Of a stretch of 57,719 nt of DNA, positions 11,941 to 19,569 are shown piece after piece (within the stretch, counting starts at the first letter, position 1; every line of letters begins with the position of its first letter). The notes below the pieces were generated by a model, which searched no databases, had not been told where the DNA came from, and saw nothing but the letters and a program-made list of their open reading frames with translations. Source of the stretch: Minisyncoccota bacterium (GTDB lineage: Bacteria > Patescibacteriota > Minisyncoccia > Phycocordibacterales > UBA9973); contig JBAZYS010000005.1 in NCBI GenBank assembly GCA_041659205.1, positions 1 through 57,719 on the forward strand, written 5' to 3'. The translations under genes were made by a program, and so were the position numbers.

Positions 11941-13341
11941 ATGATTGATATTAAAGATTTAACAATTGAAAAGGCACATAAGATGATGAAAGCTGGAGAA
12001 TTAACTTCAGTTGATTTAGTTGAAGCATGCCTGAAAAATATAAAAGAGAAAAACGAGGAATTAAATATTTTTCTCGAAGTTTTCGATGATGCCATCCTTC
12101 AAGCGAAAGCCGCTGATGAAATAATAAAATCTGGAAAGGGGACAACCCTAACTGGAATACCAATTGCCATTAAAGACAATATGTTGATAACTGGAAAGAA
12201 AACAAGTTCAGCATCAAAGATGTTAGAAAATTATGTTGCGAGCTACGATGCTTTTGCCATTAAAAAATTAAAGGACGCTGGGGCAGTTTTGATTGGCCGA
12301 ACTAATATGGATGAATTTGCGATGGGTTCCTCGACTGAGAACTCTGCTTATGGGCCAGTTAAAAACCCAATAGATTCATCTCGGGTGCCTGGAGGCTCTT
12401 CTGGGGGTTCTGCGGCTGCTGTCACTGCGCTGATGGCCCTCGGTGCATTAGGATCTGATACAGGCGGCTCTATACGCCAACCAGCATCTTTTTGTGGTTT
12501 AGTGGGAATGAAGCCGACCTATGGAGCAGTTTCAAGGTCTGGCCTCGTTGCGATGTCTTCATCTTTAGACGTTATTGGCCCTTTTGCTAAAACATCAGAA
12601 GATGCAAAAATAATCTTTGACTGTATTGCTGGAAAAGATGAGATGGATTCCACTTCTATAAACCTTCCTGATATTAAAATAAATCCAAATAAAAAAATTA
12701 TTGGTGTCCCTCGAGATTTTTTGAAAGAAGGTGTTGATGCTGAAATTTTACAAAATTTTGAAGAGAGTATAGAAAAATTAAAAAAATCAGGGTACGAGAT
12801 TAAAGATATTTCATTACCATTTTCGAAATATTCTCTAGCCGTTTATTATATTATTATGCCTGCAGAAGTTTCTACAAATTTATCTCGTTTGGATGGTGTT
12901 CGTTATGGACTTCGAAAAGAAGGGGAGAATGTAGCGGAGACCTATAAGAAAAGTAGATCAAATGGTTTTGGTATTGAAACAAGAAGAAGAATAATTTTAG
13001 GAACTTATGTCCTTTCTCATGGTTATTATGATGCCTATTACAATAAAGCTTGGAAAGTTCGTCGGGCGATCATGAAAGAGTACAATGATATTTTTAAAGA
13101 TGTTGATTTCGTAATGACTCCTACTACACCGACGACAGCCTTTAAATTTGGAGAGAAAAAAGATCCTTTGCAAATGTATTTATCTGATATTTTTACTGTT
13201 TCAGCGAATTTGGCAGGATTGCCGGCAATTTCTATTCCATCTGGTAAATCCTCATCTCTTTTGCCGATGGGTATTCAATTTATCGGGCCACTGTATTCTG
13301 ATGAAGCTCTATTTGCTATAGAAAAATATTTAAGAGAGTAA
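11941..13341 (+). CDS. gatA: Glutamyl-tRNA amidotransferase subunit A
   Basis: Amidase signature PGGSSGGSAAAV, GSDTGGSIRQPA, MYLSDIFTV. Confidence 0.96.
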   Translation: MIDIKDLTIEKAHKMMKAGELTSVDLVEACLKNIKEKNEELNIFLEVFDDAILQAKAADEIIKSGKGTTLTGIPIAIKDNMLITGKKTSSASKMLENYVASYDAFAIKKLKDAGAVLIGRTNMDEFAMGSSTENSAYGPVKNPIDSSRVPGGSSGGSAAAVTALMALGALGSDTGGSIRQPASFCGLVGMKPTYGAVSRSGLVAMSSSLDVIGPFAKTSEDAKIIFDCIAGKDEMDSTSINLPDIKINPNKKIIGVPRDFLKEGVDAEILQNFEESIEKLKKSGYEIKDISLPFSKYSLAVYYIIMPAEVSTNLSRLDGVRYGLRKEGENVAETYKKSRSNGFGIETRRRIILGTYVLSHGYYDAYYNKAWKVRRAIMKEYNDIFKDVDFVMTPTTPTTAFKFGEKKDPLQMYLSDIFTVSANLAGLPAISIPSGKSSSLLPMGIQFIGPLYSDEALFAIEKYLRE

Positions 13342-13365
13342 TTAATTGTGATATAATTTAACCAT

Positions 13366-14013
13366 ATGGAAACAATTCCTAATCCGAGCGTGCAAGGTAC
13401 TATTTTCGGTGATACCTTTCTTAATGCAAAATATTTTAATCCAGCATACTGGTTTGATAAAGAAGCTGTCTATTTTAAAAAATTTACTGCTTTCGTTACT
13501 AGTGATGAGGTTACAAATCTTGAAAGAACCATTATTATTTTTTTTGCGATGTTTTTTTTGACGATAATTTGCTATACCATCATTCGAATGTTTGAGATTA
13601 GAGCGAAAGAACACAAGCATGTGCACCATGAAATACATGAATATGCACATAATAAAATGGAACAGGAAAAGAGATTACGGGAACAAGTCGGTGGTTCTAA
13701 AAATGAACATTGGAGTAAGGTTTTAAGTTACATTTTTTCACAACACGGAAGTGATTGGAAGCTCGCAATTATCGAAGCGGATTCTATGCTTGAAACTTTG
13801 ATGGATCAGCTTGGTTATCGAGGTGAAAATTTAGGAGAAAAATTAAAAATGGCAAATCAGGAAAATTTCCCAAATCTTACTACTGCTTGGGAGGTTCACA
13901 CTATCAGAAATAGGATAGCCCACGAAGGTCTGGCTTTTGAGCTTTCACAACACGAAGCCAAAAGAGTTATCGCTTTGTACGAGCAGATTTTCCATGATTA
14001 TGGCTTTATTTAA
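13366..14013 (+). CDS. Conserved hypothetical membrane protein
   Basis: One TM; WKLAIIEADSML...HTIRNRIAH region. Confidence 0.75.
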   Translation: METIPNPSVQGTIFGDTFLNAKYFNPAYWFDKEAVYFKKFTAFVTSDEVTNLERTIIIFFAMFFLTIICYTIIRMFEIRAKEHKHVHHEIHEYAHNKMEQEKRLREQVGGSKNEHWSKVLSYIFSQHGSDWKLAIIEADSMLETLMDQLGYRGENLGEKLKMANQENFPNLTTAWEVHTIRNRIAHEGLAFELSQHEAKRVIALYEQIFHDYGFI

Positions 14014-14100
14014 CTGATTATAAGTTTTTAGTTTACTTTTTTCATAATTTAGGGTAAAATAAGAAGTGCCTTAAAGAGGCGTTTTTTATTGGATTTTTGC

Positions 14101-14129
14101 ATAGCGGGGTAGACCCGCCAAAGGACGGG
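14101..14129 (+). repeat. Duplicated 5' end of tRNA-fMet followed by a GC hairpin
   Basis: ATAGCGGGGTAGA identical at 14101-14113 and 14164-14176, then CCCGCC-AAA-GGACGGG. Confidence 0.75.
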
Positions 14130-14165
14130 CAGGGAATAGGTATCTTAGATTGTTTGTTAAAATAT

Positions 14166-14236
14166 AGCGGGGTAGAGAAGAGGTATCTCGTAAGGCTCAT
14201 AACCTTAAGACTCACGTTCGATTCGTGACCCCGCAA
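14166..14236 (+). tRNA. tRNA-fMet (CAT), initiator type; CCA not encoded
   Basis: Cloverleaf; 1x72 mismatch (A-A), A11:U24, anticodon loop CTCATAA. Confidence 0.88.
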
Positions 14237-14282
14237 CTAGTCGGCAAGTGACATGCCTTATGTCTAATTGTCGAAGATAATG

Positions 14283-14311
14283 TATAATGTCGGCGTAGCT
14301 GTTTTGGTAGA
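14283..14311 (+). repeat. Duplicated 5' fragment of tRNA-Met with CAG-to-GTT change
   Basis: TATAATGTCGGCGTAGCT-GTT-TTGGTAGA versus TATAATGTCGGCGTAGCT-CAG-TTGGTAGA at 14335-14363. Confidence 0.85.
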
Positions 14312-14340
14312 TAACGGTTAAGGTACAACTTTGTTATAAT

Positions 14341-14413
14341 GTCGGCGTAGCTCAGTTGGTAGAGCGGAGGACTCATAAGCCTCAGGTCACAGGTTCAATC
14401 CCTGTCGCCGACA
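14341..14413 (+). tRNA. tRNA-Met elongator or tRNA-Ile2 (CAT)
   Basis: Cloverleaf GTCGGCG/CGCCGAC, anticodon CAT, T-loop TTCAATC; A31-G39 mismatch. Confidence 0.88.
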
Positions 14414-14434
14414 CCCTCAGAAAGAGGAAAATTT

Positions 14435-14506
14435 GCGGCTGTAGCTCAACGGTAGAGCACCCGCCTGTCACGTGGGAGGCCGTGGGGTCAGCACCCATCA
14501 GCCGCG
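14435..14506 (+). tRNA. tRNA-Asp (GTC)
   Basis: GCGGCTG/CAGCCGC acceptor, anticodon loop CTGTCAC, discriminator G; atypical T-loop GTCAGCA. Confidence 0.88.
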
Positions 14507-14676
14507 CAAATATAAAGAACGTCCGCAAGGACGTTTTTTGTTACGTGGCTGAGGAAGTGCGGGGCACTTCTGTATGGGTGCTGACGAGCTTTTGAGATAG
14601 ATTTTGAGCCTGCGAAAAAATATATCCAAAAGGTGTACTGTTCATGTAATGAAAAGCACCCATCAGCCGCGCAAAT
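14490..14676. mobile_element. Mini insert flanked by a 22-bp direct repeat of the tRNA-Asp 3' end (att-like scar)
   Basis: AGCACCCATCAGCCGCGCAAAT at 14490-14511 and 14655-14676; 143-bp hairpin-rich spacer with no ORF. Confidence 0.65.
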
Positions 14677-14717
14677 TAAAAAGAACCATAAAGATGTGGT
14701 TCTTTTTTATTTCTTTA

Positions 14718-14747
14718 TTGACTAAATCGTATGAAATGTGGTAATTT
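14718..14747 (+). promoter_or_regulatory. Sigma70-type promoter of the second GC-rich cassette
   Basis: TTGACT-18 bp-TAATTT with extended -10 TG. Confidence 0.5.
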
Positions 14748-14926
14748 AATAGAAATCCCCAAACTCCTAACGGAGTGATGTTCTTTCTCATACGAGGCAG
14801 GTGCCTCCAAGTATATAGTTGTCTATAGGCAATTCCCACAGAAGGTGTGGGCGTTGTGTCCACATTTTCTCCTTTTCAATTGTCCTCCACGCTGAGGACC
14901 GTCGGCTAAAAGCCGAGGAGTATGTA

Positions 14927-15451
14927 ATGAAGAGAATCGTTCTTGAGCCTGCAGTAAGAAAACTTCTGCACGGCGTCAGCCACATGGAAGCAAGGGGAAT
15001 CACTGAAAACGTGGTCGTCTCAATCCAGGACGGAGCCAGTTTGGGGTTTCCTGTCGATGTCTCTGTCGACCTGCTTCTTTCCGTCACTCCTTTCCGAGAG
15101 AAGGGGTGGAGGTTTCTACGGGAATCGATCATTCCCGACGATTTCAATCTCACGTTCCGTGAGTTGGTCTACGTCGTGATGAATCCGTTCCAGTTTCTCC
15201 CAGACAGCCCCGATGGCTGTTTGCTGGCAGTCAAGAATTTTCTCAATGGGACTGCGCACGTGATTATCGTGCGGGCCCCGAAAGAATTCAACCCCGGGCA
15301 GCGCTTCCTTTTGGTGCAGTCCAAAGACCACGCGGACCTCTCAATTGAGGAGCTGGAAGAAAGCCAGCATCCTCTTGATGCCACGTTTCAAATCGAGGAG
15401 CTGGAAGAAATCCAGCATTCTCTCGAGGTCGATCTAGCTACAGCGATGTAG
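14927..15451 (+). CDS. Hypothetical protein, 174 aa (start MKRIVLE), GC-rich
   Basis: GAGGAG SD before ATG 14927; internal repeat IEELEESQH/IEELEEIQH. Confidence 0.65.
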   Translation: MKRIVLEPAVRKLLHGVSHMEARGITENVVVSIQDGASLGFPVDVSVDLLLSVTPFREKGWRFLRESIIPDDFNLTFRELVYVVMNPFQFLPDSPDGCLLAVKNFLNGTAHVIIVRAPKEFNPGQRFLLVQSKDHADLSIEELEESQHPLDATFQIEELEEIQHSLEVDLATAM

Positions 15452-15470
15452 CATTTCGCCCCCATCCACG

Positions 15471-15519
15471 ACCCCGGTCGCATGCAATTCGTTTTGCACG
15501 TGTCCGGGGTTATTTTTTT
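15471..15519 (+). terminator. Intrinsic terminator
   Basis: ACCCCGG/CCGGGGT stem with inner TGCAA/TTGCA, then a T-tract. Confidence 0.7.
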
Positions 15520-15573
15520 GTTGACAAAGTGTCAATCTGACGTAGTATTGAATGTAAGGATAATTTTGAATAT

Positions 15574-17019
15574 ATGATGAATAAAATACTTTTTAAGAGA
15601 AGTTTAATTTTTTTAAGAGTTTTGTTACTTCTAGTTGGTATTTTTTTTAGTAATACTGCTTTTGCAATAGATAAGCTTGATCAAACTATAACTTTTCCTG
15701 CACTAGCTGGAAAAATTTATAGTGATGCTGATTTTGAAATAAGTGCTACTGCAGAGTCTAACCTACCTGTTTCTTTTACATCGATAACCCTTGAGATATG
15801 CACATTAAATGGCGTTACGGTGCACATCATTTCTTCAGGTTCTTGCACCATTACTGCTTCGCAAGCTGGAGATGATATTTATAATCCTGCTCCAAGTTTA
15901 AATCAAACTGCTTATATTGATAAAGCAGTAATTAATATTACGGCTGATACAAAAAGCAAAGTTGTTGGAAGTGTGGACCCAGTATTAACATATACTAATG
16001 ACCCTTTGGTGACGGGAGATGAATTTTCTGGTGTTCTTTCTCGCGAGATTGGGGAAGATATCGGGGCATATTCTATTACACAAGGAACGCTTGCACTAAA
16101 TAATAATTACACAATAAATTTTACGGGGGCAGATTTTATAATAAATTATACTCCTCCAATAATTGCTTCTCATGACGACATAATTGCTCCAGCCACTCAA
16201 CGTACATCAATCTCTAGTTTTTGGGCTGTTGTAGATTATATTGCTCCAGATACTACTTCTGACATAGATGGAATAACACCAGCAATTTGTACACCGGAAA
16301 CTCATTCTAAGTTTCATTCTGGTATAAATATTATCACCTGTGAAAAGACAGATTCATCGGGTAATAGTGCTGTACCTACTACTTTTAAAATCACGGTGGT
16401 AGATACACCACCTGTGATTACTCTTTTAGGTGCTTCAACAATTAATCTAACTGTGGGGAGTGTTTACTCTGATGAAGGGGCTACTGCTCTAGATTATTTT
16501 GATGGTGACATAACAGAATCTATTTCAACTTCTAATCATGTAGATACAAATGTAATTGGGACTTATTTAGTTACTTATGATGTAATGGATATTAATGGTA
16601 ATGCTGCTACTCAAGTCGTGAGAACTGTGAACGTTACCCCTATTACAGTTTATGGTGGTGGCAGTTTGCCAATTTACATTACACCGCCACCAATTTCAGA
16701 ACCAATACCAACACCAACACCAGTTGCCGAAATATTGAGTACCCCAATAGAGAATCCCACTGGAGAAGTTCTTGGAGTTGAGAAATTTATCTTTACACTT
16801 TATTTAAAAAAGGGTCCACCTTATAATGTCAGGATTCAAGGTAATGAAGTAATGGAACTTCAGAAGTTTCTAAATTTATCTCCGTACGATAGCGGGCTTG
16901 TAGTGGATGGAAAATTTGGGCCATTAACAGAAGCAGCTGTTATAAAATTTCAGCTTGCAAATGATTTAATAGGGGATGGAATTGTTGGAGCTTCTACCCG
17001 AGCTGTTCTAAACAAATAA
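15574..17019 (+). CDS. Secreted multi-Ig surface protein (Ig-like, MBG, HYR-like, DUF5011) with C-terminal peptidoglycan-binding domain
   Basis: Signal peptide; DQTITF, ADTKSKVVG, TPPVITLLG...YSDEGATA and LQKFL...DGKFGPLTEAAV motifs. Confidence 0.82.
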   Translation: MMNKILFKRSLIFLRVLLLLVGIFFSNTAFAIDKLDQTITFPALAGKIYSDADFEISATAESNLPVSFTSITLEICTLNGVTVHIISSGSCTITASQAGDDIYNPAPSLNQTAYIDKAVINITADTKSKVVGSVDPVLTYTNDPLVTGDEFSGVLSREIGEDIGAYSITQGTLALNNNYTINFTGADFIINYTPPIIASHDDIIAPATQRTSISSFWAVVDYIAPDTTSDIDGITPAICTPETHSKFHSGINIITCEKTDSSGNSAVPTTFKITVVDTPPVITLLGASTINLTVGSVYSDEGATALDYFDGDITESISTSNHVDTNVIGTYLVTYDVMDINGNAATQVVRTVNVTPITVYGGGSLPIYITPPPISEPIPTPTPVAEILSTPIENPTGEVLGVEKFIFTLYLKKGPPYNVRIQGNEVMELQKFLNLSPYDSGLVVDGKFGPLTEAAVIKFQLANDLIGDGIVGASTRAVLNK

Positions 17020-19494: not shown

Positions 19495-19555
19495 GCCGTT
19501 GTAGCTGTTTTGGTAGGTCTTAACGAATGTTTGCCGTTGTAGCTGTTTTGGTAGA
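19495..19555 (+). repeat. Two tandem 5' fragments of tRNA-Thr(GGT) with CAG-to-GTT change
   Basis: GCCGTTGTAGCTGTTTTGGTAG at 19495-19516 and 19533-19554; tRNA starts at 19570. Confidence 0.88.
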
Positions 19556-19569
19556 TAAAAAGAAATAAT

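Follow-up and report, generated by a model that had tools for sequence, protein, structure and literature searches.

The window analysed here, meaning the whole stretch of 57,719 nt, lies in a CPR-like genome of 715 kb (36% GC, 40 tRNA genes, 99% complete), which is referred to as G000; other G-numbers denote relatives, C a contig and L a locus. A cluster near 14 kb of the window contains three tRNA genes, all on the + strand according to ARAGORN and Rfam. When positions 13000-16000 were scanned with Rfam, tRNA was the sole family matched, and the 5' copies described below do not score as tRNA. The features of the locus, together with a related array further downstream, are the following.

14032-14060, + strand: putative promoter-like site TTTACT-17-TAAAAT, 5' of the whole tRNA cluster (consensus match and conservation)
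14101-14113, + strand: part A of the fMet copy, 2 nt of flank plus tRNA-fMet positions 1-11, ATAGCGGGGTAGA
14114-14130, + strand: GC-rich hairpin insert interrupting the fMet copy; A14113 completes the 18-mer ACCCGCCAAAGGACGGGC (14113-14130)
14127-14145, + strand: part B of the fMet copy, GGGCAGGGAATAGGTATCT, tRNA-fMet positions 5-23 (D arm; repeat search)
14146-14165, + strand: rest of the fMet leader, with a -10-like TAGATT at 14146-14151 (from the sequence)
14166-14236, + strand: tRNA-Met(CAU), initiator-like (fMet), with A1/A72 mismatch (ARAGORN; Rfam tRNA, 57.3 bits)
14283-14311, + strand: Met copy, 6 nt of flank (TATAAT) plus tRNA-Met positions 1-23 (repeat search)
14312-14340, + strand: decayed continuation of the Met copy plus repeated flank, with T24 at 14312 (comparison by eye)
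14341-14413, + strand: tRNA-Met(CAU), elongator type (ARAGORN; Rfam tRNA, 68.8 bits)
14435-14506, + strand: tRNA-Asp (ARAGORN, Rfam)
14655-14681, + strand: 3'-terminal copy from tRNA-Asp (T loop through 3' end), placed 165 nt after the original (repeat search)
19495-19569, + strand: pair of rewritten tRNA-Thr(GGU) 5' copies, at spacings of 38 and 37 nt (self-alignment, motif)

The initial annotation had described a 13-bp duplication of the tRNA-fMet 5' end 63 bp upstream of the gene and a 29-bp duplication of the tRNA-Met 5' end 52 bp upstream, with CAG changed to GTT, and both were recovered by repeat search. Part A of the fMet copy is identical to 14164-14176 (13/13, spacing 63). The Met copy, TATAATGTCGGCGTAGCT-GTT-TTGGTAGA (the 29-mer given whole is TATAATGTCGGCGTAGCTGTTTTGGTAGA), matches 14335-14363 at 26 of 29 positions with a spacing of 52 and differs only at tRNA positions 13-15, where CAG has become GTT (14301-14303). 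It had further been claimed that both copies end at GGTAGA and that the underlying process targets this motif. This part did not survive closer comparison, as the fMet copy continues into 14127-14145, which aligns to tRNA-fMet 14170-14188 at 16 of 19 positions with a spacing of 43. The fMet copy therefore comprises positions 1-23, split by a GC hairpin insert of 18-20 nt, its part B having been overlooked, and 43 nt is, judging from this alignment, the original period of the unit. GGTAGA occupies positions 6-11 in tRNA-fMet versus 18-23 in tRNA-Met, and the end points of other copies scatter from about position 18 to 40. Since the motif lies at differing tRNA positions and the fMet copy runs past it, the shared endpoint is a coincidence.

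By eye, the continuation of the Met copy can be aligned to tRNA-Met as far as about position 32, provided that insertions of TAA and TTA are admitted; a T at position 24 is seen repeatedly in related units. We define a GCTGTTTTGGTAG unit as the acceptor 5' strand of the downstream tRNA followed by TA-GCT-GTTTT-GGTAG-N-T, located on the same strand within about 240 nt upstream. Positions 14289-14312 fit this unit exactly and the fMet copy does not: the Met copy is of the rewrite type, the fMet copy of the hairpin-insert type. A null distribution for chance similarity was made by aligning each tRNA to the flanks of unrelated tRNAs (6064 comparisons), which gave a 99.9th percentile score of 26. 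The Met copy scores 43 against this threshold; the fMet 13-mer on its own reaches 26, a borderline value for a series of about 160 tests.

In G000 the fMet copy sits between the promoter-like site at 14032-14060 and its tRNA, and the Met copy sits in the spacer between tRNA-fMet and tRNA-Met. This arrangement would place both copies in the precursor RNA, such that they are probably transcribed with the tRNAs as leader and spacer, as far as can be read from the sequence. The copies could conceivably also give rise to small tRNA-mimic RNAs, which the initial annotation had offered as an alternative. Congeners G018 and G013 have a GGTAGAAT box at the place equivalent to this site, 15-18 nt before the tRNA. 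Perfect extended -10 boxes are found closer to the genes as well: TGTTAAAAT at 14155-14163, which stops 2 nt before tRNA-fMet, and TGTTATAAT at 14332-14340, which abuts tRNA-Met (0 nt). A start 7 nt 3' of either box would fall within the tRNA. TGTTAATAT is present at the equivalent place in G018 and G013, and a repeat search showed that TTTGTTAAAAT of the fMet leader resembles TTTGTTATAAT before tRNA-Met.

Some observations concern the tRNA genes themselves. In G000 the ARAGORN calls include a tRNA-Ile whose anticodon is UAU (C1:6140-6214) and a tRNA-Ser whose anticodon is ACU (C1:36292-36377). As G000 has only two CAU tRNAs, no lysidine-type tRNA-Ile2 is evident. In several congeners the BLAST matches to tRNA-fMet (G024, G007) and tRNA-Asp (G021, G016, G015) are interrupted at the anticodon loop by some 200-270 nt, which suggests that these genes contain introns, possibly of group I.

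The initial annotation had proposed that tRNA loci be scanned for similar self-matching fragments and had named their absence as a refutation; such fragments are present both at other tRNAs of G000 and in relatives, so that on this count it is not refuted. Every G000 tRNA was aligned with its own flanks of 150-250 nt. Same-strand upstream self-matches scoring at least 26, the 99.9th percentile of the null, were obtained for eight of the 40 tRNAs, with none on the opposite strand or inverted. When weaker or diverged copies are included, about 11 of the 40 tRNA genes have a 5' copy, namely Ala, Phe, Val-GAC, Lys-UUU, Lys-CUU, Tyr, fMet, Met, Thr-GGU (two copies), Thr-CGU and Ile-GAU, where the Thr-CGU match may be the upstream Thr-GGU copy. 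The copies span approximately -10 to +20/29. The 12-mer GCTGTTTTGGTA has six sites in G000, among which the Met copy, and all are found before a tRNA, each preceded by the acceptor strand of that very tRNA. An intact D-loop is kept in no G000 copy: six carry GCTGTTTTGGTA and the others lack G18 or have GG replaced by A. The Tyr and Ile-GAU units repeat the whole leader, the Ala copy retains GCAAT of the anticodon loop, and some units in other genera retain remnants of the anticodon arm and T arm; these whole-leader repeats and arm remnants fit a tandem duplication followed by decay outside positions 1-24. Arrays orthologous to the Thr(GGU) copies at 19495-19569 were identified in G425, G017 and G009.

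The spread of the rewritten form was determined by an exact search with the GCTGTTTTGGTA 12-mer in 121 genomes of the order, representing 119 genera, with the reversed sequence as control. This identified 63 exact matches. Thirty-eight of these, in 17 genomes, are tRNA-linked and lie upstream of a Thr, Lys, Val, Phe, Ala, Met or Asp tRNA; the remaining 25 correspond to the background set by the reversed control. The acceptor strand is identical to that of the downstream tRNA (7/7) in 25 of 35 units and imperfect in the other ten. Unit spacing clusters at 70-80 nt, about one tRNA length, with a maximum of 236 nt, and arrays show periods of 37-56 nt. In other classes of the phylum the first 30 loci examined were all chance matches, and as far as this sample shows the GCTGTTTTGGTA family would be confined to the order. 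The rewrite itself is fixed: at positions 13-17 CAGTT, CAGCT, CATCT and CAACT have all become GTTTT, and position 24 has become T. Congeneric Lys, Thr and Val copies in addition share a change of AGC into GTCGTT at positions 23-25, with tRNA-specific sequence on either side.

Since a motif search is circular as a measure of conservation, the tRNA-Phe loci of congeners were fetched by means of the tRNA alone (n = 12, including G000). An upstream copy was found in six of the 12, and all six have a lesion in the D-loop: four GT(T/C)TT rewrites and two GC-rich hairpin inserts, one located after position 17 (G018) and one consisting of two arms that flank AGTT (G002). The acceptor strands of these copies co-vary with the tRNA (GCCGAGG, GCCAAGG, GCCAAGA, GCCGAGA). 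By containing both types of lesion, the tRNA-Phe sample joins the Met copy, a rewrite, and the fMet copy, a hairpin insert.

Comparison of congeners shows how patchy these copies are. The syntenic G018 and G013 lack both the fMet and the Met copy, G000 having about 100 extra nt at fMet and 52 at Met. An fMet copy is absent from ten of 13 congeners and clear only in G019, where it covers positions -2 to +30 unedited with the D arm intact, an exception to the D-region lesions, and in G017, where it covers positions 9-24. This patchy presence argues for fast turnover. The fMet leader of G019 (C3, L003) also contains 14 nt, AAGGTTATGAGCCT, that are exactly the reverse complement of the anticodon arm of tRNA-fMet (14/14); they form a hairpin whose loop carries AUG and could make a kissing contact with the anticodon loop. 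For Phe and for Lys-CUU, orthologous units are present in three congeners each, with a unit length of 71-73 nt. Identity between congeners at these loci is 48-72% for the flanks, 57-81% for the leader, 79-96% for the copy and 93-100% for the tRNA, where the value for the copy is inflated, as the units were found via the 12-mer and 12 of the 24 copy positions are ascertained; outside the 12-mer the copy is conserved no better than the leader.

Some further loci of relatives are of note. The ends of G051:C11 and G081:C30 (L133, L134) break exactly inside rewritten copies or D-loop inserts. At G117:C1:424940-425260 (L119/L120) a tRNA-Ile(GAU) is nested: the flank and positions 1-15 are followed by a linker of 54 nt, an entire tRNA-Ile, a linker of 45 nt and finally positions 18-73. 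The linkers have complementary ends, CCCGCCTATCAATTTT and AAAATTGATGGGCGGG; a rewritten (GTCTT) copy stands upstream of the whole arrangement, and a RAYT-like gene follows the 3' fragment at a distance of about 0.4 kb.

Copies of tRNA 3' ends were also found. They follow about nine G000 tRNAs (Ile-UAU, Ser-GGA, Thr-UGU, Val-GAC, Arg-GCG, Arg-UCU, Leu-CAA, Leu-UAA and Asp) at 37-169 nt downstream and start in the T loop or, as for Ser-GGA and Thr-UGU, in the T stem. These 3' units share motifs that in G000 are found only after tRNAs. In the tRNA-Asp region (14490-14681) the repeated segment comprises 22 nt from the T loop, an inverted T-arm copy is located at 14574-14585, and the direct 3' copies have a terminator-like hairpin each. 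The units behind tRNA-Arg-GCG and tRNA-Arg-UCU also contain the sequence AAAGGT(A/G)TACTGTTC of the tRNA-Asp insert. The three class II tRNAs Ser-GGA, Leu-UAA and Leu-CAA have 3' units of another type (C1:59136, C3:59556, C4:8246); all of these contain CTGGCTATGTAATAGCC immediately upstream of the 3' copy, and it is absent from the rest of G000. In G117 three units of 148 nt follow tRNA-Gly.

The 5' copies exist, are direction- and tRNA-specific and recur at orthologous loci with co-varying acceptor strands and lesions in the D region. We place about half of our confidence in the explanation that the fMet and Met copies are 5' tRNA-linked repeats, that is partial tandem duplicates which would be selected as a transcribed leader module that is read as sequence. 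It is favoured over the explanation as functionless scars, which in turn ranks above that as duplicated promoters. A partial tandem duplication would have copied the 5' end of the tRNA gene, from some bases of flank through the acceptor 5' strand to the D arm, at a period that may have been near one tRNA length. The copy would come to lie in the transcribed leader or spacer. The D-loop region is disabled in nearly all copies examined, with an acceptor strand that still matches the downstream tRNA, and selection may then keep the copy as a cis-acting leader module. The rewritten D segment, U-rich and presumably unfoldable, would be read as sequence by a protein or nuclease instead of acting as a helix.

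A more specific proposal, to which we would assign perhaps half as much weight, is that the rewritten D segment, GCUGUUUUGGUAG, or GCUGUUUUGGUAGGUCGUU within the genus, is a recognition site and the units a new class of cis-acting pre-tRNA leader elements. The tRNA 5' mimic could recruit a protein or nuclease that controls maturation or output of the Thr, Lys, Val, Phe, Met, Ala, Asp and Ile tRNAs. RNA pairing was considered in several forms. In several units UAGCUG or GUUUUGG is able to pair with bases further downstream, but the rewrite does not stabilise a local hairpin: with a mean rank of 0.56, GUUUU does not outperform random 5-mers. Whether the rewrite keeps the acceptor strand of the copy from capturing the tRNA 3' strand was evaluated by constrained partition functions on 24 units, which gave no consistent shift: the mean was +0.95 kcal/mol, and the value rose in 12 units and fell in 12 (p = 0.22). 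A search of G000 for a partner complementary to the motif found none. The fixed rewrite is explained by no model tested here.

The strongest competitor, which we consider possible yet clearly less probable than a selected module, holds that recurrent DNA events at tRNA genes left the copies behind as scars without function. D-loop DNA, and T-loop DNA too, would be the target of a nuclease, a recombinase or a small hairpin element, and repair of the breaks would duplicate the site locally; the dispensable copy would then gather target-site lesions, with occasional gene conversion from the adjacent tRNA keeping the first 12-22 bases alike. Much of the variation agrees with this. Lesions as different as rewrites, loss of G18, GG changed to A and hairpin inserts cluster at copy positions 11-19, the inserts being found after positions 11, 13, 15 and 17. 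The outer tRNA-Ile gene of G117 is split at D-loop position 15/18 round an intact inner copy with complementary linkers, the 3' copies begin in the T loop, a classical crossover site, and gain and loss between congeners are fast. Candidate agents are also encoded, G000 having four small free-standing GIY-YIG ORFs and two RAYT-like genes. Yet scars predict varied junctions, not a fixed GTTTT with T24, and GTCGTT at genus level, across tRNA families and 17 genomes. Gene conversion would erase the rewrite too, and it is expected to be inefficient between repeats as short as 12-24 bp. Moreover, no tRNA fragment adjoins a GIY-YIG gene in a BLAST census of G000 and G117, the nearest being 14 kb away.

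The GIY-YIG ORFs encode 89-104 aa and are located at 173-370 of the window and at C1:217064-217285, C2:157484-157693 and C3:19346-19558 of G000; in relatives there are as many as eight. A GIY-YIG homing nuclease encoded next to the copies was rejected as a candidate: these ORFs are multi-copy, but none is near any tRNA fragment of G000. In G117 two degenerate or short GIY-YIG ORFs lie beside tRNA-Ala and tRNA-Ser, not beside copies.

It is unlikely that the copies are duplicated promoters, in which the AT-rich flank, GC-rich acceptor strand and U8/A9 would resemble a -10 box, discriminator and start, and the duplicated 5' end would give the tRNA an upstream promoter of the stringent type. The Met copy does begin with TATAAT (14283-14288), followed by GTCGGCGT and an A, the Tyr and Ile units repeat whole leaders with -10-like boxes, and copy-bearing tRNAs, compared by eye, mostly lack the TGnTAnnnT box seen 8-25 nt before other G000 tRNAs. 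Against this, a TAnnnT hexamer is found by eye near the copy in only about six of 26 copy flanks and is not enriched, and the better extended -10 boxes, TGTTATAAT and TGTTAAAAT, abut the real tRNAs instead of the copies. A scan found no sigma-70-like site at either copy, and promoter duplication leaves both the fixed rewrite and the matching acceptor strand unexplained.

The initial annotation had likened the fMet hairpin to a GTAG-tagged REP and inferred an element or process that targets GGTAGA; on this reading a RAYT would mobilise the REP. The hairpin text that it gave, GTAG-A-CCCGCC-AAA-GGACGGG, is present, GTAG standing 5' of an imperfect palindrome at 14106-14129 (GGGGTAGA-CCCGCC-AAAGGA-CGGG) as in a REP/REPIN, and G000 has two RAYT-like Y1 (HUH) transposase genes of about 230 aa (C6:8943-9623 and C6:35101-35799). 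Nevertheless this reading is largely refuted and we deem it very improbable. Whereas REPs occur in tens to hundreds of copies, dispersed copies were not found in G000: ACCCGCCAAAGGACGGGC has one other copy in the 715 kb, an exact 18-nt match at C3:76147-76164 on the minus strand, which forms a perfect 7-bp hairpin (ACCCGCC/GGCGGGT) but is not preceded by GTAG. A search of G000 for GTAG plus a GC hairpin as repeated motif gave five loose matches, none related. The two RAYT-like genes are flanked by other repeats, which do not resemble the fMet hairpin; at C6:8943-9623 these are GACCGTCCTTGCTAG, and CTAGCTAGGACCGTCCTTGCTAG occurs on both sides of this gene. As a REP the hairpin thus lacks two of three defining features, dispersed copies and the presence of the same repeat around a RAYT gene, and a process aimed at GGTAGA is contradicted by the differing position of the motif in the two tRNA genes and by an fMet copy that runs past it. 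Finally, chance similarity or an assembly artefact is scarcely credible despite the borderline fMet 13-mer, as the Met copy is far above the null, strand-specific copies recur throughout the genome, a sequencing read is longer than the repeats, and homologous units at orthologous loci in independently assembled relatives argue against it.

What is observed is one fixed D-loop rewrite in many tRNA families, in at least 17 genomes of the 121 sampled (119 genera), within one order. Should the rewrite prove to be a recognition site, bacteria with minimal genomes would have a layer of tRNA control not seen before; a scar would point to an undescribed DNA process aimed at the D-loop of tRNA genes. 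There is a consequence for annotation too, as such fragments break contigs (G051, G081) and can be miscalled as tRNA pseudogenes.

Among known systems, integrase scars usually repeat the 3' part of a tRNA and bracket an element with its integrase. The fMet and Met copies resemble the attL/attR sites of tyrosine integrases in being direct repeats of part of a tRNA beside the intact gene. In contrast with those, it is the 5' part that is repeated (about -10 to +23), the upstream flank of the gene itself is included, and only 20-50 non-coding nt separate copy and gene. The initial annotation was right that 5' duplications are atypical of integrases: these are non-random against the null and are not classical att scars. 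The relatives with a gene between fragment and tRNA that it had envisaged did not turn up, none of the 35 related units, with spacings up to 236 nt, containing one. Split or permuted tRNA genes were considered and rejected, as neither Met locus has a 3' partner or a complementary linker; such an arrangement is present at the tRNA-Ile of G117.

The closest likeness is to the tRNA-linked repeats (TLRs) of E. coli, which occur in tRNA and rRNA operons (Egan & Landy 1978; PMC8144298). Described TLRs repeat the tRNA 3' end unchanged, and most are without known function (PMC8144298). TLRs and the units described here are alike in being short and non-coding, in adjoining a tRNA gene, sometimes in tandem, and in containing an exact copy of one gene end. 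The fMet and Met copies lie 63 and 52 nt upstream of their own tRNAs on the same strand, and the G000 units after tRNA-Asp, Arg, Leu, Ser, Ile and Val are built like those of E. coli, each ending in the last 15-23 bases of the tRNA. A copied 3' end as in E. coli is found in the tRNA-Asp unit at 14655-14681, not in the fMet and Met copies. The latter differ from TLRs in that they lie upstream, that their first 11-23 nt repeat the 5' end of the downstream gene, and that their D-loop region is altered, either by the fixed rewrite or by a hairpin. A literature search, which was not exhaustive, returned no published description of 5' tRNA copies. TLRs have been known since 1978 with their function mostly unassigned; the 5' tRNA-linked repeats, standing before the gene and copying its start, are apparently an undescribed family and the mirror image of the E. 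coli form.
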